Below, in pieces: positions 11,748 to 25,335 of a DNA stretch of 64,000 nt. The notes below the pieces were generated by a model that made no database searches, was not told where the DNA came from, and was given only the letters and a program-made list of their open reading frames with translations. The stretch comes from Candidatus Spongiisociaceae bacterium (lineage in GTDB: Bacteria; Actinomycetota; Acidimicrobiia; Spongiisociales; Spongiisociaceae), in assembly GCA_965202665.1 (NCBI GenBank), contig OZ241841.1, positions 1,888,001 through 1,952,000 on the forward strand. The letters are read 5' to 3'. Each line of letters begins with the position of its first letter. Position 1 is the first letter of the stretch. The position numbers and the translations under genes were made by a program.

Positions 11748-12187
11748 AGCGGGTTCCCTTTTGACGCAACCCGTCCGTTGCCCGCCGGGCTGGAAAGAAA
11801 GGCGTCGGCGGCGGGGGGCGGGGCGGCGACCGTAAAATCTATGGCGACGCCGGTGGTGCGGGTGGTGATCCAGTCGGCTATCCTGTGCGCCATCCGCCGC
11901 AGGCGGGTGATGACTTCCCCGTCCCCCACTTCCCAACCGGCCACCGTCAGATGATGGGGGCCGATCCCCAGCCGCCGGGCTTCGGCCAACCCCTGCTCGA
12001 ACACCCGGGCCAGCTGGGCGCAGGCCGTCCCCGGCCGGAACTTCACCGCCCGGTAGGCTTCGGCGGCGGTCATGCCGACCAGGCGGGCCAGGATGCGCCG
12101 GGCCTTCTCCTGCTCCACCCGCACGTTGTCTTTGCGGGCGGTCACCGTCTCCGGCAACGGAAACTCGGGCCGGGCGGGGGAGGTCAC
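11744..12187 (-). CDS. Divergent ribosomal protein uL22-like protein (147 aa)
   Basis: TARKDNVRVEQEKARRILARLVGMTAAEAYRAVKFRP..LTVAGWEVGDGEVITRLRRMAHRIADWITTRTTGVAI aligns by eye with the uL22 pattern; GTGA overlaps on both sides. Confidence 0.7.
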   Translation of the reverse strand: MTSPARPEFPLPETVTARKDNVRVEQEKARRILARLVGMTAAEAYRAVKFRPGTACAQLARVFEQGLAEARRLGIGPHHLTVAGWEVGDGEVITRLRRMAHRIADWITTRTTGVAIDFTVAAPPPAADAFLSSPAGNGRVASKGNPL

Positions 12188-13422
12188 GCCCCCGCCCCCG
12201 CCAGGGCCGCCCGGCGCAGATCCAGGTCGGCGTCCTCCACCATCTCCCGGGTGACCGGCGCCCCGGCCGCCATCAGCTTGCGGGCGGCCAGAATGTCCCG
12301 GGGCCGGTCCACGGTCAGGGCGGCCCGGATGCGCCCCTCCTGCAACTGGAAGGCGGTGAACCGGCGTTCCTCCAGCGACCCCCGGATGAGGTACGGGGCC
12401 TGCGGGTCGAACAGGCCCTGCGACTGGATGGTGTGGTTGTACTGGTCCGACCAGAACCAGTGCGGGATGGGCTCCGGGTTGTCCAAGCCCAGCATTCCCC
12501 GGGCGGCGGCCGCTCCCTGGCGGGCGGCAGTGTCGTGATGCTCCACCCTCCGGTATTCCCCGGTTTCCGGCTGGTATTGGGCGGCGACGTCCCCGGCCGC
12601 AAAAATGTTGCGGACGACGGTGCGGCAGTCCCCGTCCACTTGGATCCCCCCGGCGGCGGGAATGGGGGAGCCGGCTGCCGCCTCCGTGTTGGGAATCATC
12701 CCGGCCGCCGCCACCAGCAGGCCGCATTCCACCGTTCCCCGGTCGGTTTCCACCAGCAGGCCGTCCGATGTTTCGGCCAGGCCGGTGACCCGCTCCCGCA
12801 GGCGCAGTTCCACACCCCGTTCCCGGTGGATGTCGGACACCACCCGCCCCAAACGGGGGCCGAGCGGGATCCGCAGGCAGGAGTCCAGCATTTCGATGAT
12901 GGTCGCCTCCCTCCCCAAAGCGCGGGCGGAGGCGGCTGTTTCGCATCCGATGAAACCGCCGCCCAGCACCGCCATCCGCCCCCCGCCCAAAGCGGCCAGC
13001 CGCTCCCGCAGGGCGGCGGAGTCCTCCAAGGTGCGCAGGTAAAACACCCGTTCCCCTTCCAAACCGGGGAGGCGGCGGGCCCGGCCCCCGGTAGCGATGA
13101 GCAGGGCGTCGTAGGACAGCCGCCCCCCGTCCTCCAAGACCGTTTGGCTAGCCGCGGCGTCAACGGAGGCGGCCCGGGTTTCCAACAGCAACTCCACCTC
13201 GTTTTCCCCGTACCAGGCGGCGGGCCGCAACCGGCAGTCGGGGGCCCGCCCGGGGGCGGTCAGGGCTTCTTTGGACAGGGGAGGCCGCTCATAGGGCGGC
13301 TCCGACTCGTCGGAAACCAAAATGATCCGCCCCTCGTACCCTTCGCTCCGCAAGGCGGAGGCGGCCGAGACGGAAGCTATTCCGCCCCCCAGCAATATTA
13401 TGGTTTGGGGGAAGCCGGGCAC
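12184..13422 (-). CDS. Ferredoxin reductase (glutathione-reductase-type FAD/NADH oxidoreductase)
   Basis: GGGIA, PYERPPLSK, ATG, GGGFIGCE, FAAGD, WFWSDQY. Confidence 0.92.
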   Translation of the reverse strand: MPGFPQTIILLGGGIASVSAASALRSEGYEGRIILVSDESEPPYERPPLSKEALTAPGRAPDCRLRPAAWYGENEVELLLETRAASVDAAASQTVLEDGGRLSYDALLIATGGRARRLPGLEGERVFYLRTLEDSAALRERLAALGGGRMAVLGGGFIGCETAASARALGREATIIEMLDSCLRIPLGPRLGRVVSDIHRERGVELRLRERVTGLAETSDGLLVETDRGTVECGLLVAAAGMIPNTEAAAGSPIPAAGGIQVDGDCRTVVRNIFAAGDVAAQYQPETGEYRRVEHHDTAARQGAAAARGMLGLDNPEPIPHWFWSDQYNHTIQSQGLFDPQAPYLIRGSLEERRFTAFQLQEGRIRAALTVDRPRDILAARKLMAAGAPVTREMVEDADLDLRRAALAGAGA

Positions 13423-13423
13423 C

Positions 13424-13750
13424 TCAGCCGGGCGGGGCCACGCAGATGGCGCCCTCCTCCACCCGGCAGGGAACCGGGCTCAGGGAGCTGTCGGCCGGGT
13501 TAATGCCCTCCCCGCTCAGGGCGTTGAACTCCCACATATGGTTGACGCAGGTCAGGACGTCGCCCTCCAAGTCGCCGTCCGACAGGGGCCATTCCTGATG
13601 CGGGCAACGGTCCTTGTAGGCCCGCACCTCCCCGTCCACGTTGACCAGCACCACTTTGACCGGGCCCGCCTCCACGCCCACCATGTCGCCCTCCCACAGG
13701 TCGTCCAGGTCGTAAACCTTCCGCCACGGCCCCCCGCCGTCGCCGGTCAT
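13424..13750 (-). CDS. Rieske [2Fe-2S] ferredoxin (TmoC-like)
   Basis: CPHQ..LTCVNHMWEF..GEGINP. Confidence 0.92.
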   Translation of the reverse strand: MTGDGGGPWRKVYDLDDLWEGDMVGVEAGPVKVVLVNVDGEVRAYKDRCPHQEWPLSDGDLEGDVLTCVNHMWEFNALSGEGINPADSSLSPVPCRVEEGAICVAPPG

Positions 13751-13764
13751 CGCCGTCCGCCCGG

Positions 13765-14802
13765 TCAGTTGGAGGCGGTTGCCGGTTCGCCCAAACCGGC
13801 CGCTTCCAAGCCGGCGTTGCGGGCGGCGGCCGCCTCGGCGGCCACCCCCTCCGGGCTGATCCCGCCCGCCGGGGCCCCGGCCAACAGCCCTCCCAGGGCC
13901 AAAGCGGCCGCGTCGGCCCGCGGGGCCCATTTGCCTATCCACCGGCGGTAGGCGTCGGCGTTGTCCGGCCGTTGCTCCACCGTCAGGCGGGCCAGGGCGC
14001 CGCACCAGCGGGCCCGGCGTTCCACGTCTTCATGCAGGTTTTCGCACAGGAGCCAGGTCAGGTCGTCGCCGTTGGCCCGGGCCGCCTCCCCCAAAGCGCG
14101 GATCAGCACATCGTCCAAAGTTGGGGCGATCACCAGGTTGGCGGCGGTGAACGACTCCCCCCAGTCGTAGGCGATCAGGGCCAGTTCCAAGGCTTCCCGG
14201 GCCGGTTGCCATGCGGGATGGTTTTCCCAAATATCCCGTTCCCCGACGGCGAAGCCTTTCTCCGGGAAGGCGATCTGCAACTCGCGGGTTCGGTAGGAGA
14301 CGTTGGTCACCCGCCGCAACTGGTCGGCGGCGGACAGGGCGGCCGCGTTGCTGATGTACGCGGAATGCCCCAGATGGCAGATGTAGGCCTGCAGCATCTG
14401 CAGGGCGTGGGCCGGGAACCGGGTAGGGGTGAAAACGGTGCGCAAAATTTCCCGCCATCCCCCGGACAGGTTTTGGTCGTGGTTGACGCCGGCGTAGGAG
14501 TCGAACAGCCCGGCCATGGCTTTCTCCCGGGCCGACTGTTGCGCCACGTAAGCCCGGTAGGTGAGCTGGTCGGGATCCCGGAAGTCCTCCCAGTCGTCGA
14601 TCTGCACCGGGGAGTTGTCCCGGTAGGCCAGAAACCACAGGTTGCCCGGCGAGGACGGGTTCTGCTCCAAAGCCGCCTTGCGATCCTTGCGGATGGTGTA
14701 GTTGGCGGCGTGGGCGCCGATCTCGTACTCGGTGGGGCGGCGCCGGGTTTCTCCGAACTCGCTCCAAGTGCGGAGTTTGCGGGGTTGCGGTTGGTCGGTC
14801 AT
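13765..14802 (-). CDS. Soluble di-iron monooxygenase hydroxylase beta subunit (TmoE-like)
   Basis: LRTWS..RRRPTEYE, DWEDFRDPDQLTYRAY, WQPAREALE..YDWGESF. Confidence 0.92.
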   Translation of the reverse strand: MTDQPQPRKLRTWSEFGETRRRPTEYEIGAHAANYTIRKDRKAALEQNPSSPGNLWFLAYRDNSPVQIDDWEDFRDPDQLTYRAYVAQQSAREKAMAGLFDSYAGVNHDQNLSGGWREILRTVFTPTRFPAHALQMLQAYICHLGHSAYISNAAALSAADQLRRVTNVSYRTRELQIAFPEKGFAVGERDIWENHPAWQPAREALELALIAYDWGESFTAANLVIAPTLDDVLIRALGEAARANGDDLTWLLCENLHEDVERRARWCGALARLTVEQRPDNADAYRRWIGKWAPRADAAALALGGLLAGAPAGGISPEGVAAEAAAARNAGLEAAGLGEPATASN

Positions 14803-14834
14803 AAGGCCTGCCTTTCTCCCGGATTCCCCCGGGC

Positions 14835-15137
14835 TCAGCCGCTTTCGGTGGCTCCGCCCAGCGACCAGGTGATCTGCTCGGCGCTGGAAGTGTCGATTCG
14901 CCCCGCGTTGGCGGACAGGTGGTTTTCCAGCGAAGGCAACTCGAATTCGGGTCCCAGGTGCCGCCGCAGGGAAGCGACGGTCACTTTCATGAATGAGGGG
15001 GCCTGGATGCGGACGTAGGCCCCCCGGTCGATCACCTCGATGTCCACGCCCGGGTTGTCGTCTTCGATGGCGCTCACCACCCGCTCCACCGGGGCGCCCA
15101 TGCGCAGAATCGGGCCAACGGGGTTTTCCATCGCCAT
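14835..15137 (-). CDS. Monooxygenase effector protein (MmoB/DmpM, TmoD-like)
   Basis: VGPILRMG, IEDDNPG, DRGAYVRI, LGPEFEL..AGRI. Confidence 0.9.
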   Translation of the reverse strand: MAMENPVGPILRMGAPVERVVSAIEDDNPGVDIEVIDRGAYVRIQAPSFMKVTVASLRRHLGPEFELPSLENHLSANAGRIDTSSAEQITWSLGGATESG

Positions 15138-15142
15138 CCTCC

Positions 15143-15451
15143 TCAGTCTTCGTCCGCGTAGTCCACCCGCACATGGTCCAGGGGGGCGATCCCCGCCTCG
15201 GCCACGGTCAGGTCGTCGTCCAGCAACCGGTTGTTGTGGTACACCACTTTGCGGGCGTCGCGGGCCCGCACCCGGGAGGTGGCGTGATGCTCCACCGCCC
15301 CCGCCAACTCGGCGATGGTCTGGTTGGACATCACCGGGATCAGCAACTCCACGAAGTCATCGTGGAAGATGGCGTTCAACGGAACCAGTTGCGGCTCCGG
15401 GGCGTCCCCGGGCTCCGGGGCCGCTTCCGGGGCGGCGCCGTTGTCGCTCAT
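15143..15451 (-). CDS. Monooxygenase gamma subunit (TmoB-like)
   Basis: PLNAIFHDDFVELLIPV..TIAELA..TVAEAGIAPLDHVRV; ATGA overlap with the alpha-subunit stop. Confidence 0.85.
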   Translation of the reverse strand: MSDNGAAPEAAPEPGDAPEPQLVPLNAIFHDDFVELLIPVMSNQTIAELAGAVEHHATSRVRARDARKVVYHNNRLLDDDLTVAEAGIAPLDHVRVDYADED

Positions 15452-16956
15452 ACCGCCGCCCCCGCCATCGCCGGTTCGGCCATCGGATAGGTTTTGGTCC
15501 ATTCGTAGCCGCCGGCGTCGTCCCCGAAGACATCGGGGGTGAGGCCCATGTAGCCCAAAATTCCCGGTACGTCCATCGGCTGGATCTCCCCGGCCAGGAA
15601 CCGTTCCACCACCGTCTTGTTGTTGAGGGCGTCCCGGTCCTCCCACCAAATCTGCCGGCATCCTTTGGTGCAGAAATGGTAGGTCACCCCGTTGTGCTTG
15701 AGCGAGAAGTTGCGCACCCGCCATTTGCCGTCCCTCCCGTAGGTGGCGTTGCAGGTGGGGAGCATGCAGTAGTTGCACAGCCAGGGCAGGGTTTCGGGCA
15801 GGGCCCGCTCCATTTTGCCGTTGTTGACGTTTTCGGCGATCACCCGCCACTTGTCGCCGTAGAGGGTGTCCCAGTTGGGATACTTTTCCATCAGCCACTC
15901 GCGGGATTCGGCGTCCACCCCCACCGGTTTCCACCACAAAGTGGGCCGCCAGAACCATTCGCCCATCTGCAGGGAATGGTGCCACACGTCCAGTCCCTCC
16001 ATGAACTCATCCCAGTACCAGGGTTTTTTCAGCCCGTAGTCCTGAATGGTGCGCACGAACTGGTCGATGATCCACTCTTCCATGAACTCCCGGTAGCTCT
16101 GCTTGCGGTGCTCCACCGGGGTGTTGTAGTCCATGGAGGGGCCGGTCAGGGCGGAGAAAGCGCGGGCGGACAGCCAGAAGAACTTGTCCACCGTCCACTG
16201 CGCCCGCACCGGGTCGTGCTCCACCAGGATCTCCAGAGTGGGCCCGCCCTGCTGGGAGTGGCGGGCCTCGTCGGTCTGGATGGAGGAGATCATGTTGGCG
16301 AAGTTGACGTCCCCCACCTCCAAGGCGTCGGCCGCCAACGCCACGAACTGGATGTTGGTGAAGCCGGTTTCGAAGGTGAACGGGAGCTGGATGGCGATGT
16401 CCACCACGCTGCCCCCGATCATCATGTTGTCGATCAGGGCCCGCAGGGCGATGCTCACCCAGTCGTTGGTGAGCAGGGCCCGGTGCGCCCAGTCGAACTG
16501 CGGATCGTCGGCCACCATTTCGTGTCCCACCGACAGGCTGAGCTGCCCGTGCCGGATTTCATCCAAGATGCCCATGACGGCCATGTTGCGCCAGGCGGGG
16601 CTGAGGCCGAAGCGGGCCATGCGGCTTTCCCCGTACACGGCCGCGTATTCCACCAAGGCGATGCCCCCCAGGTGCATTTTCACCGAGGACTTCCACGCTT
16701 CGGACAGGCCGTCGAACTGGTTGGAGCGCCGCAGGGCGTTTTTCACCGCGTAGGCGGACACCTCTTTTTCGTTCTGGGTGGCCACGTATTCGGGGTAGGC
16801 GACCTTGTAGCTCTCCTCCCACTTGGACCAAGCCTCGCGGGGGACTTTGCCGCTGCCGCTCAGCCAGTCCGGGTAGACGGCCTCATCGTCCACGTAGCGC
16901 AACGTCCAGTCGACATCACGGACGATGCCCTGCCATTCGTCTCGTTTCAACGTCAC
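15448..16956 (-). CDS. Soluble di-iron monooxygenase hydroxylase alpha subunit (TmoA/TouA/IsoA group)
   Basis: Iron ligands EYAA, DEIRH, FETGFTN, DEARH; C-terminal YHS-like YHFCTKGC. Confidence 0.95.
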   Translation of the reverse strand: MTLKRDEWQGIVRDVDWTLRYVDDEAVYPDWLSGSGKVPREAWSKWEESYKVAYPEYVATQNEKEVSAYAVKNALRRSNQFDGLSEAWKSSVKMHLGGIALVEYAAVYGESRMARFGLSPAWRNMAVMGILDEIRHGQLSLSVGHEMVADDPQFDWAHRALLTNDWVSIALRALIDNMMIGGSVVDIAIQLPFTFETGFTNIQFVALAADALEVGDVNFANMISSIQTDEARHSQQGGPTLEILVEHDPVRAQWTVDKFFWLSARAFSALTGPSMDYNTPVEHRKQSYREFMEEWIIDQFVRTIQDYGLKKPWYWDEFMEGLDVWHHSLQMGEWFWRPTLWWKPVGVDAESREWLMEKYPNWDTLYGDKWRVIAENVNNGKMERALPETLPWLCNYCMLPTCNATYGRDGKWRVRNFSLKHNGVTYHFCTKGCRQIWWEDRDALNNKTVVERFLAGEIQPMDVPGILGYMGLTPDVFGDDAGGYEWTKTYPMAEPAMAGAAV

Positions 16957-16969
16957 AGTCGGACTCCTT

Positions 16970-17434
16970 TCAGTCGACTTCCATATGGCCCAGTTGACGA
17001 TAGATCCCGGCGTTGTCCCAGTAGGCGGTGATGCTTTCGATCTTGTCGTCCCCGTTCACATCGAAGATGAAAACGTGCGGCTCCCAGTATTTGCAACCGG
17101 TGGGCGCGATCGGCCCCCAGGCTTTCTCCTGGGTGCCCCCCACGCTGACCACCGCCGCCACCTGTCCTTCTTCGGAGGCGGTGATGGAATGCACTTCGTT
17201 GGACAGGTCGGGGAAAGAGTTGATCAGCCCCTCCCACATCGGCCGGCCCAAAGTGGCTACTTTGCCGTCCCCCCGGATCACCCGCTGCTTGCCCCAGATC
17301 TCCACCGGGACGTAGGAGAAGTCGGCGGTGTCGGTGCACAACTCCACCATCCCGAGGGTGTCGTGGCTGCGGTAGGCGTCGAAGAAGTCCTCCACCACTC
17401 CCGCCGCTCCGGTTCTTTCCATGGTTGCGGTCAT
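16970..17434 (-). CDS. NTF2/SnoaL-like protein
   Basis: VVEDFFDAYRSHD, SFPDLSNEVHSI, FDVNGDDKIESITAYWD. Confidence 0.82.
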   Translation of the reverse strand: MTATMERTGAAGVVEDFFDAYRSHDTLGMVELCTDTADFSYVPVEIWGKQRVIRGDGKVATLGRPMWEGLINSFPDLSNEVHSITASEEGQVAAVVSVGGTQEKAWGPIAPTGCKYWEPHVFIFDVNGDDKIESITAYWDNAGIYRQLGHMEVD

Positions 17435-17481
17435 CGTCTTTCGCCTTTCCCTCGCCTTACGTACTTTCCGATATCGGGTTT

Positions 17482-17901
17482 TCAAACTATGGATACGCTG
17501 TCCAGCCGTTTTACGGCCAGCCGCCGATAGAGGATGTTCTGATCCCAGAACCCTTTGATGGAGGTGATGCGGCCGTCGCCGGTGCCCAGCAGCCACGCCT
17601 GGTCCAAGTCCAAGTGTTTCTCCTGGTTGACCACCCCCAAATAGTCGGCGGCCTGCGTGCCTTCCATTTTCAGCTGGGTGACCACCGTGCCGTCGGAGCC
17701 CGTGAAACTGGATTTCTCGGTGAGGAGCAGGTCGGGGAAGGCAGTCGTCGTTTCGTCGAAGAAGGCCCGGGCTTCCGCCTTGCCCCCGCTCACCCCCGCC
17801 GGGGCTATGTCCGCAACGGCCCCCTCGTCTACTTCGGCGAAGGCCCGCTCCACATCGCGGTCGCGGATGGCGTTCCAGAATCTTGCGACTGTCTCCGACA
17901 A
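17482..17901 (-). CDS. SnoaL-like ester cyclase family protein
   Basis: FWNAIRDRD, AFPDL, MEGTQ, DGRITSIKGFWD; GGAGG RBS. Confidence 0.82.
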   Translation of the reverse strand: MSETVARFWNAIRDRDVERAFAEVDEGAVADIAPAGVSGGKAEARAFFDETTTAFPDLLLTEKSSFTGSDGTVVTQLKMEGTQAADYLGVVNQEKHLDLDQAWLLGTGDGRITSIKGFWDQNILYRRLAVKRLDSVSIV

Positions 17902-17943
17902 CTTGTCAACCTCCTCCCGGGTCGGGAACCCTCCAATTTCTCC

Positions 17944-18963
17944 TCAGAGAGCCTCCATGTACTTAAGCACCGCGTCGGCCACCGCGTCCGCCGAACCCGG
18001 ATTTTGGGCGGTGATCAGGTTGCGGTCCACCACCACGTGCGAAGCCCAGGCGGCCCGCCCGTCGTCGAACACCGCCCCGTTGTTGCGCAGGGTGCTCTCC
18101 AAGTACCAGGGCATTCCCTGTTTGCCGGGGCGGGTCTGATCCTCCTCTTCGTCGGTGAAGGAGGTCATCCGGTACCCGTCGAACAGCCACTGGCCTTCGG
18201 TGTTGGCGGGGGCGGACAGCAGAACCGCCGGGCCGTGGCACATTGAGGAAATGGCGGCCTGCTTCTCGTGCAGGATGCCCAGCAACCGGGTCACGTCCGA
18301 GTTGTCGGACAGATCCACCATCGGGCCGTGCCCGCCGGGGACGAACACCGCGTCGAAGGTGGCCATGGTTTCATCGCTCATCTCAGCCAGGTTCGCCGGG
18401 TTGACGAAGTCGGGCAGGGTGTCCAGCAGGTGCTTGATGCGGGAGGCTTCGCTGCGGGCGTCTTCGTTCACCGTCGCCAAATCCGCTTCCATATCGGCCC
18501 GCGTCACCGAGGCGGGAAGGTCCTGGTCCTGCAGGGAGTCCAAGAACTCCCGGTCGTTCCGCCACGTGTCGAGGGCGGCGACGTTGATCAGCTCCCGGGC
18601 TTCCACCGGGGTCATGCCCGCTTCTTTGAGCCGGTTGAAAACCCGCCGGGAGGCGATCATTCCCAGCTCGGTGAGGTGGCGGAGGGTGAGGCGGATGTCG
18701 TCCACATCGTGGGCGAAGGTGCGGGTGATGGTGCCCAGAAAGTCTTCGTCTTCGTCCGGGTAGTGGAAGATTTCCTCCAAGCCGTAGGGGTCGGGGTAGG
18801 GGGAGCGTCCGTCCGGGGTGGCCACCACCACGTCCAACCCGGCTTCCGTGAACCGCTCGTAGGGGGTAATGGCCTCGTCGGCGAAGAAGCCGGTTTCGTA
18901 CATCGTCCCGTTGGACATCTCGATCTCCCGGGCGCTCGACACCAGGAACAACAGTTTCGGCAT
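17944..18963 (-). CDS. DJ-1/PfpI (Hsp31-like) type 1 glutamine amidotransferase-fold protein with an internal insertion
   Basis: TGFFADE, ATPDG, FVPGGHGPMVDL, SMCHGPAVL, ITAQNPGS. Confidence 0.88.
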   Translation of the reverse strand: MPKLLFLVSSAREIEMSNGTMYETGFFADEAITPYERFTEAGLDVVVATPDGRSPYPDPYGLEEIFHYPDEDEDFLGTITRTFAHDVDDIRLTLRHLTELGMIASRRVFNRLKEAGMTPVEARELINVAALDTWRNDREFLDSLQDQDLPASVTRADMEADLATVNEDARSEASRIKHLLDTLPDFVNPANLAEMSDETMATFDAVFVPGGHGPMVDLSDNSDVTRLLGILHEKQAAISSMCHGPAVLLSAPANTEGQWLFDGYRMTSFTDEEEDQTRPGKQGMPWYLESTLRNNGAVFDDGRAAWASHVVVDRNLITAQNPGSADAVADAVLKYMEAL

Positions 18964-19120: not shown

Positions 19121-20017
19121 TCAGCCGCGGATTTGGGCCAGGCGGCGGGCGGCTTGGGTGAAGTAAGCCCCGTACTCCAACGGGGCCAGCCAGCGGCCGG
19201 GGATGCCGTCCACCCCGGCGATTATTCCGAGCAACCCCCCGGCGATGGCCCCGGTGGTGTCGGCGTCGTCGCCCCGGTTGACCAGTTTGACCAGCGTTTC
19301 CTCAAAATCGGGCGGTTGTTGGATGGCCCACACCGCGCACCCCAGGCTGTGGACGACGTAGCCGCCGGTGCGCAGGCCGGTCACCGGCAGGTCGGCGGGC
19401 AGGTCCAGGGTTTCCCGCACCGCCGGGTGCAGGCCCAGGGCGCGGGCGGCGGCGACCGCTTGGGCGGGGGAGGCCCCGTCCAACAGGGCGGCCGCTATTT
19501 CGTTGTAGGCGATGCAACTGTCCACGCATTTGGGATGGGCGTGGGTGACGGCGGAGATCTCGGCCGTTTCCCGTCGGCGCCGTTCCGGGTCGGGGCGGGT
19601 CAAAGCGGTGGGCAGGGCCCGCATCAGCGACCCGTTGCCGCAGGAGTTTTCGGAACGGAGGCCGCTGGCGGTCGGATCTCCATGTTCGGCCAAGTTTTCC
19701 AGGGCGCGGCGGGTGGCGCCCCCGATGTCAGGGGGGCCGGTGTAATACCAAGCCAGGAATTCGTCCGCCACTTTGCTCAGGCGGTATTCGCCGTCCAGAT
19801 AGGCGGCGGTCACCGCTTTGGTGAGAGCGGTGTCGTCGGTGCCCTGCCCCGGTTCCCAGCCGAAGGCCCCTCCGCCCGTCATTTCCCGATGGGTTCCGTG
19901 CCGGAGCTTTATTTCTTCGGCGCTCATGAATTCGACGGTGGATCCCAAGGCATCGCCCGCCGCTGCGCCGAGCAGTCCGCCGGCGATGGCCCGTTCCAGG
20001 GAAGGCCGGTCGCTCAT
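19121..20017 (-). CDS. ADP-ribosylglycohydrolase (DraG/ARH family)
   Basis: GDALG, GTDDT, GNGSLMR, THAHP, GDDADTTGAIAG. Confidence 0.92.
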   Translation of the reverse strand: MSDRPSLERAIAGGLLGAAAGDALGSTVEFMSAEEIKLRHGTHREMTGGGAFGWEPGQGTDDTALTKAVTAAYLDGEYRLSKVADEFLAWYYTGPPDIGGATRRALENLAEHGDPTASGLRSENSCGNGSLMRALPTALTRPDPERRRRETAEISAVTHAHPKCVDSCIAYNEIAAALLDGASPAQAVAAARALGLHPAVRETLDLPADLPVTGLRTGGYVVHSLGCAVWAIQQPPDFEETLVKLVNRGDDADTTGAIAGGLLGIIAGVDGIPGRWLAPLEYGAYFTQAARRLAQIRG

Positions 20018-21096
20018 TCCCCCGGGCCTCCGGGGGGCGGAGATTGGGTTTCCCGGTCCCGGAGCTGGGCTTGGCGGGACTGCTCCAGGATGAGGTGGAA
20101 GATTTCTTCCACTCCGTCCGCGTCCAGCCCGGCCCGTTCCGCCTCTTCCCGGATGATTTCCAGCAGTTCCGTTTCCCGTTCCGGGATCTGCACCGGCATG
20201 TTCCGCTCCGCTTTGATGCGCCCGATGCGCATGGCCTGCTCGTGCCGGTTGGCCAGCAACCGCACCAGGTCGCGGTCGATCAGGTCGATGTTGTTGCGGA
20301 TGCGGTGCACACCCAGGGCGGTCATCAGCCGGGCGAAAGCGGGGGGGTCGATCTGATGGGAGACCCTGGTGCGGGCGGCGGGCGGGTCGGGATGCACTTC
20401 GATCATCACCCCGTCCGCCCCCACGCCCTGGGCGGCCAGGGCCAGCGGCTGGATTTGCCCGGCGGCCCCGCTGGCCGCCGACGGGGCGGCGATCACCGGC
20501 AGATGGCTGGCTTCCCGCAACACCGGAATGGAACTCAGGTCCAGAGTGGTGCGGGTGGAATGCTCGAAGGTGCGGATGCCGGCTTCGCACAGCACCACCT
20601 GATCGTTGTCTTCGGCCAGGATGTATTCGGCCGCCCACAGCCATTCGTCCACCGTGGCCGACCCGCCCCGGGCCAGCAAAACCGGCTTCCCGGTTCGTCC
20701 GATGACCCGCAACAGTTCAAAGTTCTGCATGGCGTCGGGGTCCACGTAGATCATGTCGGCGTATTCGGCCACCATTCCCACATCTTGCGGCTCCAGCACT
20801 TTGGTGAGGGTGGGCAACCCGGTTTCCTCCCCGGCCCGGCGCAGGATTTCCAAGCCCGGTTTGCCCAGCCCGGGAAAGTCGTAGGGGGAGCTGGCCGCCT
20901 CGTAGGCCCCGCCCCGCAACACGGAGGCCCCGGCTTCCGCCACCGCCAAGGCGGCGGTCATCATCTGCTCTTCGGTCTCCACCGCCCGGGGGCCGGCTAT
21001 CACCGGGAACGGGTCGCGGCCGAACCGCACTGGCCCCACCGCCACCACCGTATTCTCGGCGGAGCCGTTTCTGAGTGCTCTGCGTTCCATTTCCAC
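20014..21096 (-). CDS. Type I-beta DAHP-synthase-like domain (degenerate active site) fused to C-terminal AroQ chorismate mutase
   Basis: IAGP, MQNFELL, GIRTFE, EVHPDP scaffold; C-terminal RNNIDLID..R..K..ERE..S..Q. Confidence 0.88.
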   Translation of the reverse strand: MEMERRALRNGSAENTVVAVGPVRFGRDPFPVIAGPRAVETEEQMMTAALAVAEAGASVLRGGAYEAASSPYDFPGLGKPGLEILRRAGEETGLPTLTKVLEPQDVGMVAEYADMIYVDPDAMQNFELLRVIGRTGKPVLLARGGSATVDEWLWAAEYILAEDNDQVVLCEAGIRTFEHSTRTTLDLSSIPVLREASHLPVIAAPSAASGAAGQIQPLALAAQGVGADGVMIEVHPDPPAARTRVSHQIDPPAFARLMTALGVHRIRNNIDLIDRDLVRLLANRHEQAMRIGRIKAERNMPVQIPERETELLEIIREEAERAGLDADGVEEIFHLILEQSRQAQLRDRETQSPPPGGPGE

Positions 21097-21141
21097 TCCT
21101 TAATTTAAATGCCCTGCTGGAGGGCGGCGCCGCCTCCGGTC

Positions 21142-21171
21142 AAAAAAGAACCCGGAGCGGACGCTCCGGGT
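21142..21171 (-). terminator. Intrinsic terminator of an attenuator
   Basis: Minus strand reads cccggagcg-tc-cgctccggg-ttctttttt, about 45 nt before the 21096 start. Confidence 0.85.
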
Positions 21172-21195
21172 CTGGCTTTTGCGATGGGTTGGTTG

Positions 21196-21264
21196 TTACG
21201 CGCCGCGCCAAACCCGGGCCCCCGGCCCGGTAAAGCAATAGGCGTAATAAAACGAACCCGTCAC
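21196..21264 (-). CDS. Aromatic-amino-acid leader peptide (22 aa, MTGSFYYAYCFTGPGARVWRGA)
   Basis: GTG start, clustered Phe/Tyr codons, TAA just upstream of the terminator hairpin. Confidence 0.75.
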   Translation of the reverse strand: MTGSFYYAYCFTGPGARVWRGA

Positions 21265-21353
21265 AACGTAAATAATAACCCGCCCGCTCCGCCCGCGCAA
21301 TTCCAGAACGCCGGGCGGCGCGGCCAGCGGCGAAAAATACGGAAAAATCCGTC

Positions 21354-21486
21354 CAGCGAAACTGTCACTAGACCGATAGCGAAATTCACACTAGACTGGT
21401 AGCGAAACAATTACTAGACCGATAGCGAAATTCACACTAGACTGGTAGCGAAAATATCACTAGGCTGATAGCAAAACTAACAGTAG
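21354..21486. repeat. 23-bp tandem repeat array (about 6 units)
   Basis: CTAG at 21368, 21391, 21414, 21437, 21460 and GTAG at 21483; consensus ctagacYgRtagcgaaa-N6. Confidence 0.92.
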
Positions 21487-21495
21487 GAGGCCCGG

Positions 21496-22758
21496 ATGGG
21501 GGCAAATTCCCTGATAGAACGTAATATTATTCCCAATTTGCAGCAGGCGTTGCAAACCTTTCGGGTGGCGGTCCTGAACGGTCCCCGACAGTCCGGGAAA
21601 ACTACGGTCGTTCGACAAGTGGCCGGCGAAGGAACTTTTCTTACGTTGGATGACCCGCAAGGTTTGCAGGCCTTGTCCGAATATCCGCTGGAGATTCTGA
21701 GCTCGGCGTCCCGCCCGGTGGTGGTTGACGAAATTCAGCGGGGCGGGGAGCAGTTGGTGCGGGTGATCAAACTGATTGTGGACGAGGTTTGGGATCCCGG
21801 TCAGTTCCTGTTAACCGGCTCGGCCAATTTCCTGACGGCGCCCACTATCAGCGAATCTTTGGCCGGCCGGGCCGTTCTGCTCACTTTGCATCCTTTATCG
21901 CAAGGCGAGTTGGAGGGCCGCCGAGCAGTTTTTCTGAACGGTTTGACGGCCGATCCCGACTCGCCTCCTCCCGGCGAAGATTCCCAACTTCAGATTGGGG
22001 ACTATGTGGAGCGGATGTGCGCGGGCGGCTACCCGGAGGTGGTGAATCTGTCGCCGCCGCAACGGAAAGCCTGGTTCACCTCCCACGTTTCCACCGTAAC
22101 CCTGCGGGACGTGGTCGATTTAACCGGGGCCCGCCGGGCGTCGAACCTGCCCCGCCTGCTCCGGCTGATTGCGGCGGGCACCGCCCAGGAACTGGTGGCG
22201 TCCAAAATTCACAACCGGCTCGATTTCGGCAACGTTCAGACCACGCTTGATTATCTGGCGCATCTGGAGATGACGTATTTGGTTCATCAGTTGGGGCCCT
22301 GGTCGCGCAATCTCACTTCCCGGGCCAAACGACGCTCCAAAATCTATGTGACCGACACGGGCCTGGCCGCCGGCCTGTTGAACCTGACCGTCGATTCGCT
22401 GTCCGAGCCGACGCATCCGGCGCGCGGGCAGATGGTGGAGACTTTCGTGGTCAACGAAATTAGGAAGCAGGCCTCCTGGCTGGATTGGTCGCTGGGCCCG
22501 ATAGAGTTATTCCACTATCGGGACCGCAACGGCCTGGAAGCCGACCTGATAATGGAGTTGCCGGACGGCCGGGTGGCGGCGGTAGAGGTCAAAGCGTCGC
22601 TGACGGTAGGTTCCGATGATTGGGCCAATCTCAAAAAGCTAAGGGATCTGATGGGAGACCAGTTCGCCCAAGGCATAGTCTTCTACGCCGGTTCCCAAGC
22701 CCTGCCGGTAGGCGATCGCCTACACATCCGACCCATAGAGGCCCTCTGGCAGTCCTAG
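21496..22758 (+). CDS. AAA_14 ATPase with DUF4143 (PD-(D/E)xK-like C-terminus)
   Basis: GPRQSGKT, VVDEIQR, LTGS, ESLAGR, KIYVTDTGL, EADL..AVEVKAS. Confidence 0.92.
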   Translation: MGANSLIERNIIPNLQQALQTFRVAVLNGPRQSGKTTVVRQVAGEGTFLTLDDPQGLQALSEYPLEILSSASRPVVVDEIQRGGEQLVRVIKLIVDEVWDPGQFLLTGSANFLTAPTISESLAGRAVLLTLHPLSQGELEGRRAVFLNGLTADPDSPPPGEDSQLQIGDYVERMCAGGYPEVVNLSPPQRKAWFTSHVSTVTLRDVVDLTGARRASNLPRLLRLIAAGTAQELVASKIHNRLDFGNVQTTLDYLAHLEMTYLVHQLGPWSRNLTSRAKRRSKIYVTDTGLAAGLLNLTVDSLSEPTHPARGQMVETFVVNEIRKQASWLDWSLGPIELFHYRDRNGLEADLIMELPDGRVAAVEVKASLTVGSDDWANLKKLRDLMGDQFAQGIVFYAGSQALPVGDRLHIRPIEALWQS

Positions 22759-25335
22759 CCGGGTCCGCTCCAAAAAATGTCACAGGCCCTTGTTACCTTG
22801 AGGGATGGGTTGCCGCTTGAAAGAAGCGGCGGCGCTGGAAACGAAAAATTGGGGTTCTGAGATAAGCGTATGATGGCCAGATGACATGCAAGGAGGTTCG
22901 GTGAACCGGTTTAGAGGCGGGACGAGGCGGAGAAAGTTGGCGGGCGGCTTGGCGGCGATGGCGGCCCTGGCAACGGCGGGAACGGTTTTGGCCGTCACCG
23001 GTTTCCGGGATTTGGGCACTGCCCACCCCAACTACGACGATATCCAGTTCGCGGTCGACAAGGGATGGTTCCAAGGATACGACGATGGAACGTTCCGCCC
23101 GGACCGGGTAGTTTCCGACGCCCATTTAGCAAGGGTTATGAGGCGGGCCTTTCCGCAGGGGGCGACGAGAGCCGAGTTGGCGACCTTCTTACGAGGCGGC
23201 TACGAACGCTTGAACCGCGCCGCGCGGTTACCCGGTGAAGGGGTGAGTTTGACGATGGCTCAGGCTAACTGGTCCACCGGTTATTTCCAGGCGGCTTTGT
23301 ACCGAGCCCTATTGCAGGAGTTGGGATACGAGGTGAGCGATCCGGCTGATTTGGAGTTGGGTCCCAGCTTGGCGTATCTGGCCATGGCCGAAGGGGACGC
23401 TGACTTTTGGGTGAACAGCTGGTATCCGGGTCATAACAGATGGTTGGAAAACGAGTTGCCGGACGGTTCCAAAGTGGGCGATCATCTTACGGTGGTAGGC
23501 GAGCAGATGCCCGCTGGCGGTTTGCAAGGTTTTCTGATTACCAAGAGCTTCGCCGAGAGGTACGACATAGCTACGCTTGATGATTTGAACGACAATCCGG
23601 CCGCAATTCGCCGCTACGACGCCCAGGATGCGAATCCGGGTAACGGGGTGGCGGAGATTTACGGTTGTCCGGAGTCGTGGACCTGTGATGACATTATCCA
23701 GAGCCAGATCGCATTTTCGGGGTGGGAGAACATCGATCAGGTGTTGGCCGGGTACGACGCTATGTTCGCCGAAGCGGTGGCCAAGGCCAATAAGGGTGCT
23801 CCGATGGTGGCCTACACCTGGACGCCCAGCTCTTATATCACCCAGTTGCGGCCGGGGGACAACGTGGTATGGGTGGGGGTGGAGGATGTGCTTGATGATT
23901 CCAATCCGTTGGGTCGGGAAGGAGGCGAGGGATGGGATCAGCGGCCGGGTACGGCGGCTTTGAGCCCTGATTCCTGTCCGGACGCGGCGGAGCGGGGCAT
24001 CTGTCAGTTGGGGTGGGCGGCGGCGGATATTTTGGTGACCGCCCGCAATGACTTGATTCGGAACCATCCGGCGGCGGCTAGTCTGCTGGCCAATGTGGCG
24101 TTGAACGTGGTGGATGTGTCGTTGCAGGTGGTGGCCCAGGAGGGCGGGGAGAGTCCGGTGGATCTGGCCGAGCAGTGGATCGCCAACAACCAGGACAAGG
24201 TGAATGCGTGGCTGGAGAAGGCCACCGCCGCTCATAACCGCACCGGGGAGCCGGGCGAGGGGGTGAGTTTGACGATGGCTCAGGCTAACTGGTCCACCGG
24301 TTATTTCCAGGCGGCTTTGTACCGGGACCTGTTGCAACGGTTGGGGTATGAGGTGAGCGATCCGGCTGATTTGGAGTTGGGTCCCAGCTTGGCGTATCTG
24401 GCTATGGCTGAGGGGGACGCCGACTTTTGGGTGAACAGCTGGTATCCGATTCACAACAGTTGGTTGGAAAACGAGTTGCTGGACGGTTCCAAAGTGGGCG
24501 ATCATCTTACGGTGGTGGGCGAGCAGATGCCCGCTGGCGGTTTGCAAGGTTTTCTGATCACCAAGAGCTTTGCCGAGAGGTACGACATAGCTACGCTTGA
24601 TGATTTGAACGACAATCCGGCCGCAATTCGCCGCTACGACGCCCAGGATGCGAATCCGGGTAACGGGGTGGCGGAGATTTACGGTTGTCCGGAGTCGTGG
24701 ACCTGCGATGACATCATTGAAAGCCAGATCGTGTTTTCGGGCTGGGATAACATCGATCAGGTGACGGCCGGGTACGACGCCATGTTCGCCGAAGCGGTGA
24801 CCAGGGCTAATCTGGGCGTTCCGATGGTGGCCTACACCTGGACGCCCAGCTCTTATATCACCCAGTTGCGGCCGGGGGACAACGTGGTATGGGTGGGGGT
24901 GGAGGATGTGCTCGATGATTCCAACCCGTTGGATCGGGAAGGGGGCGAGGAATGGGATCAGCGGCCGGGTACAGCGGCTTTAAGGCCTGGTTCCTGCCCG
25001 GACGCGGCGGAGCGGGGTGTTTGCCAGTTGGGGTGGCTGGCGGCTGATATTTTGGTGACCGCCCGCAATGACCTGTTGGAGAACCATCCGGCGGCGGCCA
25101 AGCTGTTGGAGCTGGTCGAGCTGAACGTGGTGGACGTGTCGTTGCAGGTGGTGGCTCAGAACGGCGGAGAAACTCCGCAGGATCTGGCTACGCAGTGGAT
25201 CGCCAACAACCAGAGCAAGGTTGACTCCTGGTTGGCCGTGGCCCGCGTTGCGGCCTCCACATCCGACCCATAGAGGCCCTCTGGCAGTCCTAGGCGGGGC
25301 CGCTCTGGAAAAATGTCACAGGCCCTTGTTACCTT
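22723..25335. repeat. Pair of ~78-bp direct repeats (22723-22799 and 25258-25335) bracketing the SLH-ProX gene
   Basis: cacatccgacccatagaggccctctggcagtcctag...aaaaatgtcacaggcccttgttacctt occurs twice. Confidence 0.9.
22886..25273 (+). CDS. SLH-domain protein with two tandem glycine-betaine ABC substrate-binding (ProX/OpuAC) domains
   Basis: Signal-like N-terminus, FQGYDDGTFRPD SLH motif, duplicated ANWSTGYFQA..GCPESWTC..YTWTPS domains. Confidence 0.88.
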   Translation: MQGGSVNRFRGGTRRRKLAGGLAAMAALATAGTVLAVTGFRDLGTAHPNYDDIQFAVDKGWFQGYDDGTFRPDRVVSDAHLARVMRRAFPQGATRAELATFLRGGYERLNRAARLPGEGVSLTMAQANWSTGYFQAALYRALLQELGYEVSDPADLELGPSLAYLAMAEGDADFWVNSWYPGHNRWLENELPDGSKVGDHLTVVGEQMPAGGLQGFLITKSFAERYDIATLDDLNDNPAAIRRYDAQDANPGNGVAEIYGCPESWTCDDIIQSQIAFSGWENIDQVLAGYDAMFAEAVAKANKGAPMVAYTWTPSSYITQLRPGDNVVWVGVEDVLDDSNPLGREGGEGWDQRPGTAALSPDSCPDAAERGICQLGWAAADILVTARNDLIRNHPAAASLLANVALNVVDVSLQVVAQEGGESPVDLAEQWIANNQDKVNAWLEKATAAHNRTGEPGEGVSLTMAQANWSTGYFQAALYRDLLQRLGYEVSDPADLELGPSLAYLAMAEGDADFWVNSWYPIHNSWLENELLDGSKVGDHLTVVGEQMPAGGLQGFLITKSFAERYDIATLDDLNDNPAAIRRYDAQDANPGNGVAEIYGCPESWTCDDIIESQIVFSGWDNIDQVTAGYDAMFAEAVTRANLGVPMVAYTWTPSSYITQLRPGDNVVWVGVEDVLDDSNPLDREGGEEWDQRPGTAALRPGSCPDAAERGVCQLGWLAADILVTARNDLLENHPAAAKLLELVELNVVDVSLQVVAQNGGETPQDLATQWIANNQSKVDSWLAVARVAASTSDP

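Follow-up and report, generated by a model that had tools for sequence, protein, structure and literature searches.

A degenerate type I-beta DAHP-synthase barrel fused to the sole chorismate mutase found in a Candidatus Spongiisociaceae genome: a possible dead subunit of a hetero-oligomeric DAHP synthase

The window analysed was a stretch of 64,000 nucleotides from a Candidatus Spongiisociaceae bacterium (assembly GCA_965202665.1, contig OZ241841.1, positions 1,888,001 to 1,952,000), and coordinates without a prefix refer to this whole stretch. An open frame extends over 20014-21096 of the minus strand. The fusion gene of a pseudo-DAHP synthase (DAHPS) and a chorismate mutase (CM) was assigned to 20014-21090, encoding 358 residues from the ATG at 21090. 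This start is likely to be the correct one, because the GTG at 21096 overlaps the AAGGAG ribosome-binding site (21096-21101, minus strand, 5 nt ahead of the ATG) and the database protein, P0003, also has 358 residues. Pfam matches on the 360-residue frame were DAHP_synth_1 (PF00793, residues 22-253, 178.5 bits) and CM_2 (PF01817, residues 266-344, 70.1 bits). The type I-beta DAHP-synthase barrel was placed at residues 11-259 (20314-21060, minus strand) and the AroQ chorismate mutase domain at residues 261-345 (20056-20310, minus strand). An AlphaFold2 model of the fusion (mean pLDDT 91.8) contained a confident barrel followed by three AroQ helices (261-295, 303-319 and 324-349). The structure nearest to the barrel was the A. 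pernix DAH7PS (PDB 1vs1), with a TM score of 0.94, an rmsd of 1.6 Å and 54% identity, and the domain is homologous to the (beta/alpha)8 barrels of I-beta enzymes. The protein passes the cut-offs of two NCBIfam DAHPS models, the TIGR01361 score being above that model's cut-off, so automatic annotation will name it an active or bifunctional enzyme and inflate the DAHPS isozyme counts of these Acidimicrobiia.

The motif KPRTS is kept by none of the best 120 of 7102 homologues (55-99% identity); the close orthologues are thus not a KPRT-bearing group from which this copy alone departs, a possibility that the sequence-only reading of this DNA had left standing. The closest homologues among the matches listed were from Acidimicrobiia, several of them Ca. 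Spongiisociaceae. The stretch was found at 0.98-1.00 of sampled words in six sequencing runs of three studies, one of which is possibly the source sample; no RNA run was among the listed runs that contain it. Since all 120 listed homologues lack KPRTS and the stretch was recovered in sequencing runs, the fusion is neither a chance product nor an assembly error.

Several neighbouring genes were recorded. An ADP-ribosylglycohydrolase gene (19121-20017, minus strand) begins with an ATG that overlaps the stop codon of the fusion (ATGA) and may be co-transcribed with it under the leader described below. Two SnoaL-like genes and a DJ-1/PfpI gene (16970-18963) precede a soluble di-iron monooxygenase cluster (12184-16956, minus strand) with two Phenol_Hydrox subunits, an MmoB/DmpM protein, a probable Rieske ferredoxin and a reductase. 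About five imperfect head-to-tail repeats of ∼21 nt lie at about 21365-21480, between the leader and an AAA_14/DUF4143 gene (21496-22758), and 22886-25273 (plus strand) encodes an S-layer homology domain protein with two near-duplicate glycine-betaine-binding (OpuAC) domains. A functional link between the fusion and its neighbours was considered and rejected, since, of 43 loci from relatives, only one has the downstream ADP-ribosylglycohydrolase and DJ-1 genes beside the fusion and four have the AAA gene there.

Ahead of the fusion gene lies a leader ORF of 22 codons, (M)TGSFYYAYCFTGPGARVWRGA (21196-21264, minus strand), with five Phe/Tyr codons within codons 5-11. It is followed, before the fusion gene, by an intrinsic terminator-like hairpin of 10 bp with a U tract (21141-21172, minus strand). 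From the sequence and a folding model an antiterminator was predicted, the 5′ arm of which (21207-21217, minus strand) forms 11 bp, one of them G-U, with 21176-21166, a partner that overlaps the 5′ arm of the terminator. By equilibrium modelling, a ribosome at codons 4-11 left the terminator a probability of 0.01-0.13, which rose to 0.91-1.00 once the ribosome stood at codon 12 or beyond. The modelled switch held in only 6 of 15 modellable loci, the window's included; in four more loci no U tract was detected. Phe/Tyr-rich mini-ORFs were found ahead of 37 of 44 fusions compared with 2 of 65 other DAHPS genes. This arrangement, a short ORF rich in cognate codons ahead of a terminator, resembles that of an attenuator, and control by Phe and Tyr appears to act through the leader. 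Rfam gave no match in 20900-21600 at E ≤ 1, and the folding z-score of the whole leader was only −1.66.

Barrel residues were numbered as in the T. maritima enzyme by way of the intact paralogue in the same genome, which aligns to 1rzm without gaps. Thirteen active-site positions were compared; among these was counted E164, which we take to have an active-site role. Eleven of the thirteen are changed in the fusion (C102R, K131E, R133A, T134S, E164K, Q182Y, R186D, K207A, R237A, H272A and D309R), T134S being conservative, and only R126 and E298 are unchanged. With roles taken from the available text of PMC6362186 (its numbering plus 66), the losses include three of the four metal ligands (C102R, H272A and D309R, leaving E298) and the PEP- and E4P-binding residues K131, R133, Q182, R186, K207 and R237 (K131E, R133A, Q182Y, R186D, K207A and R237A), with R126 retained. 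The motif changes listed in the sequence-only reading (AGPRA, EAASS, VDPDA, LARG, CEAG, APSA and the rest) were all recovered on re-alignment. Judged by these residues, the barrel is predicted not to be an active type I-beta DAHPS. The motifs assigned to subunit contacts, SSPY, MQNFELL, EWLWAAEY, DN and GIRTFE, are retained.

The chorismate mutase domain aligns to the E. coli enzyme (1ecm) over 78 residues without gaps. Residues R265, R282, K293, R305, E306, S338 and Q342 correspond to E. coli Arg11, Arg28, Lys39, Arg51, Glu52, Ser84 and Gln88, and the Arg/Arg/Lys/Glu/Ser/Gln set that had been said to remain is therefore all present. Six of these residues (R265, R282, K293, R305, E306 and Q342) are invariant among 69 fusions, 63 of which also have S338; the position equivalent to Asp48 is Ile. 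The domain has the sequence features of an AroQ chorismate mutase, and its catalytic site looks intact.

The genome that contains the window (2.77 Mb, 94% complete) has two PF00793 matches. The second, at C1:1547040-1548053, retains all catalytic motifs, has an N-terminal ferredoxin-like domain (PF18152) and precedes a prephenate dehydrogenase gene; the other DAHPS for which a search had been suggested is thus present. The fusion is the sole AroQ match in this genome, no AroH and no class II DAHPS were found in it, and both a prephenate dehydratase (PDT) and TyrA are encoded, an indirect sign that the fused mutase may be active. Across the order, the intact DAHPS (L001:1240-2253, equal to C1:1547040-1548053) forms a clade in which G128D, Q182R, E298D and S308V are fixed (52/52). 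These changes adjoin the active site, the clade is an uncharacterised I-beta subgroup, and in some genomes its member is the only DAHPS found.

A fusion was present in 45 of 61 relatives, with an intact barrel in 4 and a degenerate one in 41; two additional intact fusions were fetched later, bringing the fetched relatives with intact barrels to six. Neither the Phe/Tyr leader nor the spread of the family through the order, intact fused members included, had featured in the sequence-only reading. By sequence, 44 of the 45 also have an intact paralogue. The fused mutase is the sole AroQ protein in 43 of the 45, and the other two, both home-family genomes, carry an extra, nearly identical CM-only copy (L118:2920-3270 and L119:2971-3354). 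Fusion barrels grouped apart from other I-beta enzymes with a support of 99. The tree of fusions requires three label changes, and a single clade of degenerate barrels was not rejected (p-AU 0.537, on a quick tree built without two partial rows and 19 of the 25 from the home family). Other fusions of chorismate mutase were seen in the same order, with middle domains read by eye: frames of ∼700 residues with an N-terminal mutase, a probable prephenate dehydratase and an intact C-terminal DAHPS (L007, L009, L011 and L078), and probable TyrA-CM and CM-TyrA fusions (L117:2825-4246 and L120:2158-3279).

Selection was estimated by the Nei-Gojobori method from 66 home-family pairs, each within one genus and not independent of each other. 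The dead barrel had a dN/dS of 0.075, compared with 0.047 in the barrel of the active paralogue and 0.118 in the chorismate mutase. The value in the window's own genus was 0.23, from one pair only. No stop codon interrupts the barrel in the fetched fusions. The dead barrel is held by purifying selection and is not decaying, and on this point the estimates agree with the earlier proposal of selection without decay. With the fold kept, the catalytic residues gone and purifying selection in force, the fusion has, as far as its sequence can tell, the properties of a pseudoenzyme domain.

The order was surveyed in 221 genomes, each at least 90% complete. A full-length fusion match at E ≤ 6e-93 was present in 124 genomes, and 123 of the 124 had a further match, a count taken from match tables beside which 294 weaker matches stand unlisted and for which sequences were checked in part. 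A class II DAHPS was found in 31 of the 221 genomes. Four of these also retain an intact I-beta enzyme together with a dead barrel whose contact motifs are intact. No intact I-beta enzyme was found in the remaining 27, of which 21 had only CM-level matches and 6, all of genus g19, had kept the barrel. The barrel-CM fusion is the only I-beta sequence in g19, and a class II DAHPS is present in 11 of 11 g19 genomes.

Loss of the barrel left the mutase on its own in several genomes. A lone mutase of the fusion type is the only one found in G051, G076, G081, G091 and G032, and another occupies the fusion locus itself in G061. Those of G051, G076, G081, G091 and G061 cluster with the fused mutases of their own families, in a tree of 83 columns and low resolution, and share neighbours with the fusion loci. 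This grouping and the common neighbours show that two separate lineages with class II enzymes (f2 g26/g40/g44 and f11 G061) lost the barrel by deletion in place. Three genomes (G003, G010 and G082) carry a chorismate mutase unrelated to the fused ones. Other combinations were also seen: G032 has lost the barrel and retained an active I-beta DAHPS, and G100 (90% complete) has a barrel with intact contacts and no partner that was found. G032, G048 and G057 have no fusion, and the only DAHPS found in them is an active I-beta enzyme, which therefore does not need the barrel. The informative losses of a partner amount to about 3-5 lineages.

A barrel-barrel interface is described in the accessible text of PMC12202928 (AlphaFold3 model compared with PDB 4c1k) as formed by the beta2-alpha2, beta4-alpha4, beta5-alpha5, alpha5 and beta6-alpha6 elements. 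The contact segments used here correspond to its interface loops; they rest on that text rather than on coordinates, were picked after the alignment had been viewed, and in several cases also wall the active site. Seven positions kept in all other degenerate barrels are eroded in g19 (S135, P136, G141, Y223, N229, R240 and F242). Identity to the intact-enzyme consensus in contact segments minus that in the rest of the barrel was −0.04 in g19, compared with +0.06 to +0.25 in 19 groups accompanied by a partner. In g19, 7 of the 20 kept columns in contact segments were lost, compared with 3 of the 31 in the rest of the barrel (Fisher p 0.036), a result that comes from this one genus. An out-of-sample check was made in 28 further class II genomes and two others; one partial g54 fusion and one split g19 fusion were excluded from scoring, and partners were verified by motif, one being cut by a contig end. 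All eight further barrels accompanied by a partner (six from new genomes and two fetched earlier) retain all seven marker residues, and four further g19 barrels retain none or one of them.

The g19 barrel is itself under purifying selection, with a dN/dS of 0.08 for the closest pair and of about 0.13 over five pairs, which points to some constraint independent of a partner. Its dN relative to that of the mutase is 1.3, as against 0.59-0.93 elsewhere. A Phe/Tyr leader was found ahead of 0 of 6 g19 fusions; general relaxation therefore confounds the erosion of contacts, and a broader rewiring is possible. The active enzyme shows no co-adapted change, its fixed residues being the same with or without a dead partner.

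The reading that we consider somewhat better than even is that the dead barrel enters an assembly with the active DAHPS bearing the ferredoxin-like domain and so brings chorismate mutase into the complex. It was chosen because, of the readings considered, it is the only one to predict that the barrel is lost or eroded when the intact I-beta enzyme goes and not when a class II enzyme arrives. The barrel would have no DAHPS activity of its own and the fused mutase would be active. Joined to the active enzyme in a mixed oligomer through the usual I-beta barrel-barrel surfaces, the fusion would tie the mutase to the entry enzyme of the pathway. Besides being controlled by its own regulatory domain, DAHPS might then be tuned by chorismate or prephenate bound at the mutase site, or by the proportion of dead subunits, as fixed by the attenuator. 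This tuning step is the weakest, and overall it is offered tentatively; an outcome such as feedback by prephenate or an adjusted sensitivity to Tyr and Phe is suggested by analogy with the gating of the Geobacillus type. The full proposal, a hetero-oligomeric DAHPS in which a dead subunit docks the sole chorismate mutase on the active enzyme while a Phe/Tyr attenuator sets the number of such subunits, so that composition regulates both entry to the shikimate pathway and its branching, is likewise rated below an even chance. As to its history, an active DAHPS-CM fusion likely once stood beside the isozyme with the ferredoxin-like domain, and its catalytic residues then became dispensable; the mixed oligomer may be an entrenched leftover of two isozymes that co-assembled.

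A private scaffold, in which the barrel homo-oligomerises or packs on the mutase and keeps it folded and active without contact with an active DAHPS, is rather unlikely, and of the alternatives it survives best. The available text on the Prevotella and Porphyromonas enzymes (PMC8408635, PMC12202928) reports that separation of the domains strongly attenuates both activities, the g19 barrel remains under selection without a partner, and a homo-oligomer would employ, and hence conserve, the same surfaces as a hetero-assembly. Nevertheless, the mutase stands alone in G051, G076, G081, G091 and G032 and at the fusion locus of G061, and scaffolding does not predict that contacts erode or barrels vanish where the active I-beta enzyme is missing, yet do neither where a class II enzyme merely co-occurs with it. 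The comparative data thus favour, at the level of sequence, a partner of an active DAHPS over the needs of a scaffolded mutase. Of the two roles inferred earlier, that of a regulatory or partner subunit is strengthened by co-occurrence and erosion, and that of a scaffold is weakened by the mutases that stand alone.

It is improbable that the barrel controls the fused mutase by sensing a ligand, whether PEP, some other phosphorylated metabolite or an aromatic amino acid, or that it has acquired a new catalytic activity. Such a role would suit the replacements fixed in the home family (R35 and K97, each in 25/25), the presence of R126 in all 62 of the degenerate barrels and the survival of Cys, His and Glu as metal ligands in several lineages, as well as the more than twofold activation of the mutase during DAHPS turnover reported in the available part of PMC8408635. 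The same text gives occupancy of the Prevotella enzyme without catalysis as leaving the mutase unactivated, however, and the active-site substitutions of the degenerate barrels vary from family to family, which argues against one common new ligand site. Control by Phe and Tyr apparently already acts through the leader, and the link to the active paralogue would be left unexplained. That the barrel retains useful DAHPS activity, or is a decaying remnant, is very improbable: its fold is intact and dN/dS is higher in its own genus, but nearly all PEP/E4P-binding residues and most metal ligands (roles as in the text of PMC6362186 cited above) are gone, the fetched barrels are uninterrupted with dN/dS far below 1, and a class II DAHPS is present in every g19 genome where the barrel is the only I-beta sequence.

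If co-assembly with the active DAHPS is correct, the entry to aromatic biosynthesis would be coupled to its branch point in a new manner, through a mixed complex that includes a dead subunit. The relatives show the barrel in intact, degenerate and eroded form as well as its deletion, and natural sequences can therefore be used to test how a bifunctional enzyme turned into a pseudoenzyme.

No published description of the fusion family was found in a literature search that covered few subscription papers, and no chain with the barrel-then-CM layout was among the matches in the PDB comparisons. A degenerate I-beta barrel joined to a protein containing chorismate mutase is known from Shewanella oneidensis, as aroQ-pheA with an 'aroA I-beta pseudogene' (PMC1173090); that case is a P-protein fusion of Proteobacteria, and the accessible text terms it a pseudogene and proposes no function. 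Prozyme heteromers, as described in the available text on trypanosomatid deoxyhypusine synthase (PMC3663545) and TbPRMT1 (bioRxiv 10.1101/776112), likewise pair a dead paralogue with an active one. They belong to unrelated families, however, and their dead subunit is a strong activator of its partner and has no second enzyme attached, whereas the active DAHPS occurs alone in some genomes. Chorismate mutase and DAHPS are also coupled in Mycobacterium tuberculosis and Corynebacterium glutamicum, by a non-covalent complex according to the accessible part of PMC8408635, but with a class II DAHPS, a free small mutase and no pseudoenzyme adaptor.

Among the I-beta enzymes, Thermotoga maritima DAH7PS (1rzm) aligns gaplessly over 336 residues to the genome's intact paralogue and has the same ferredoxin-like domain (PF18152); it differs in being a homotetramer without a dead subunit, and G128D, Q182R, E298D and S308V are fixed in the paralogue's clade. 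The N-terminal CM-DAH7PS of Bacillus, Listeria and Geobacillus (PDB 3nvt, 5j6f) combine an I-beta barrel, 41-44% identical to that of the fusion, with an AroQ domain, and prephenate at their mutase dimer gates the tetramer, as stated in the available text of PMC8408635; this gating is the model for the proposed regulatory step. In them an active barrel follows an N-terminal mutase with a chiefly regulatory role, and most prephenate is produced by AroH, whereas no AroH was found in the genome studied here. The C-terminal CM-linked I-beta DAH7PS of Prevotella nigrescens and Porphyromonas gingivalis (PMC8408635, PMC12202928) share the order of barrel then AroQ and likewise hold the organism's only chorismate mutase. 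As far as the accessible text of both sources describes them, these enzymes have active barrels and form homodimers held by the mutase, which has an extended alpha2-alpha3 loop; the loop is absent from the fusion, whose mutase matches 1ecm without a gap. The fusion has lost active-site residues, as read from its sequence, and stands beside an intact paralogue. Despite the same domain order, it would not be classed as a bifunctional DAH7PS-CM of the Prevotella type.
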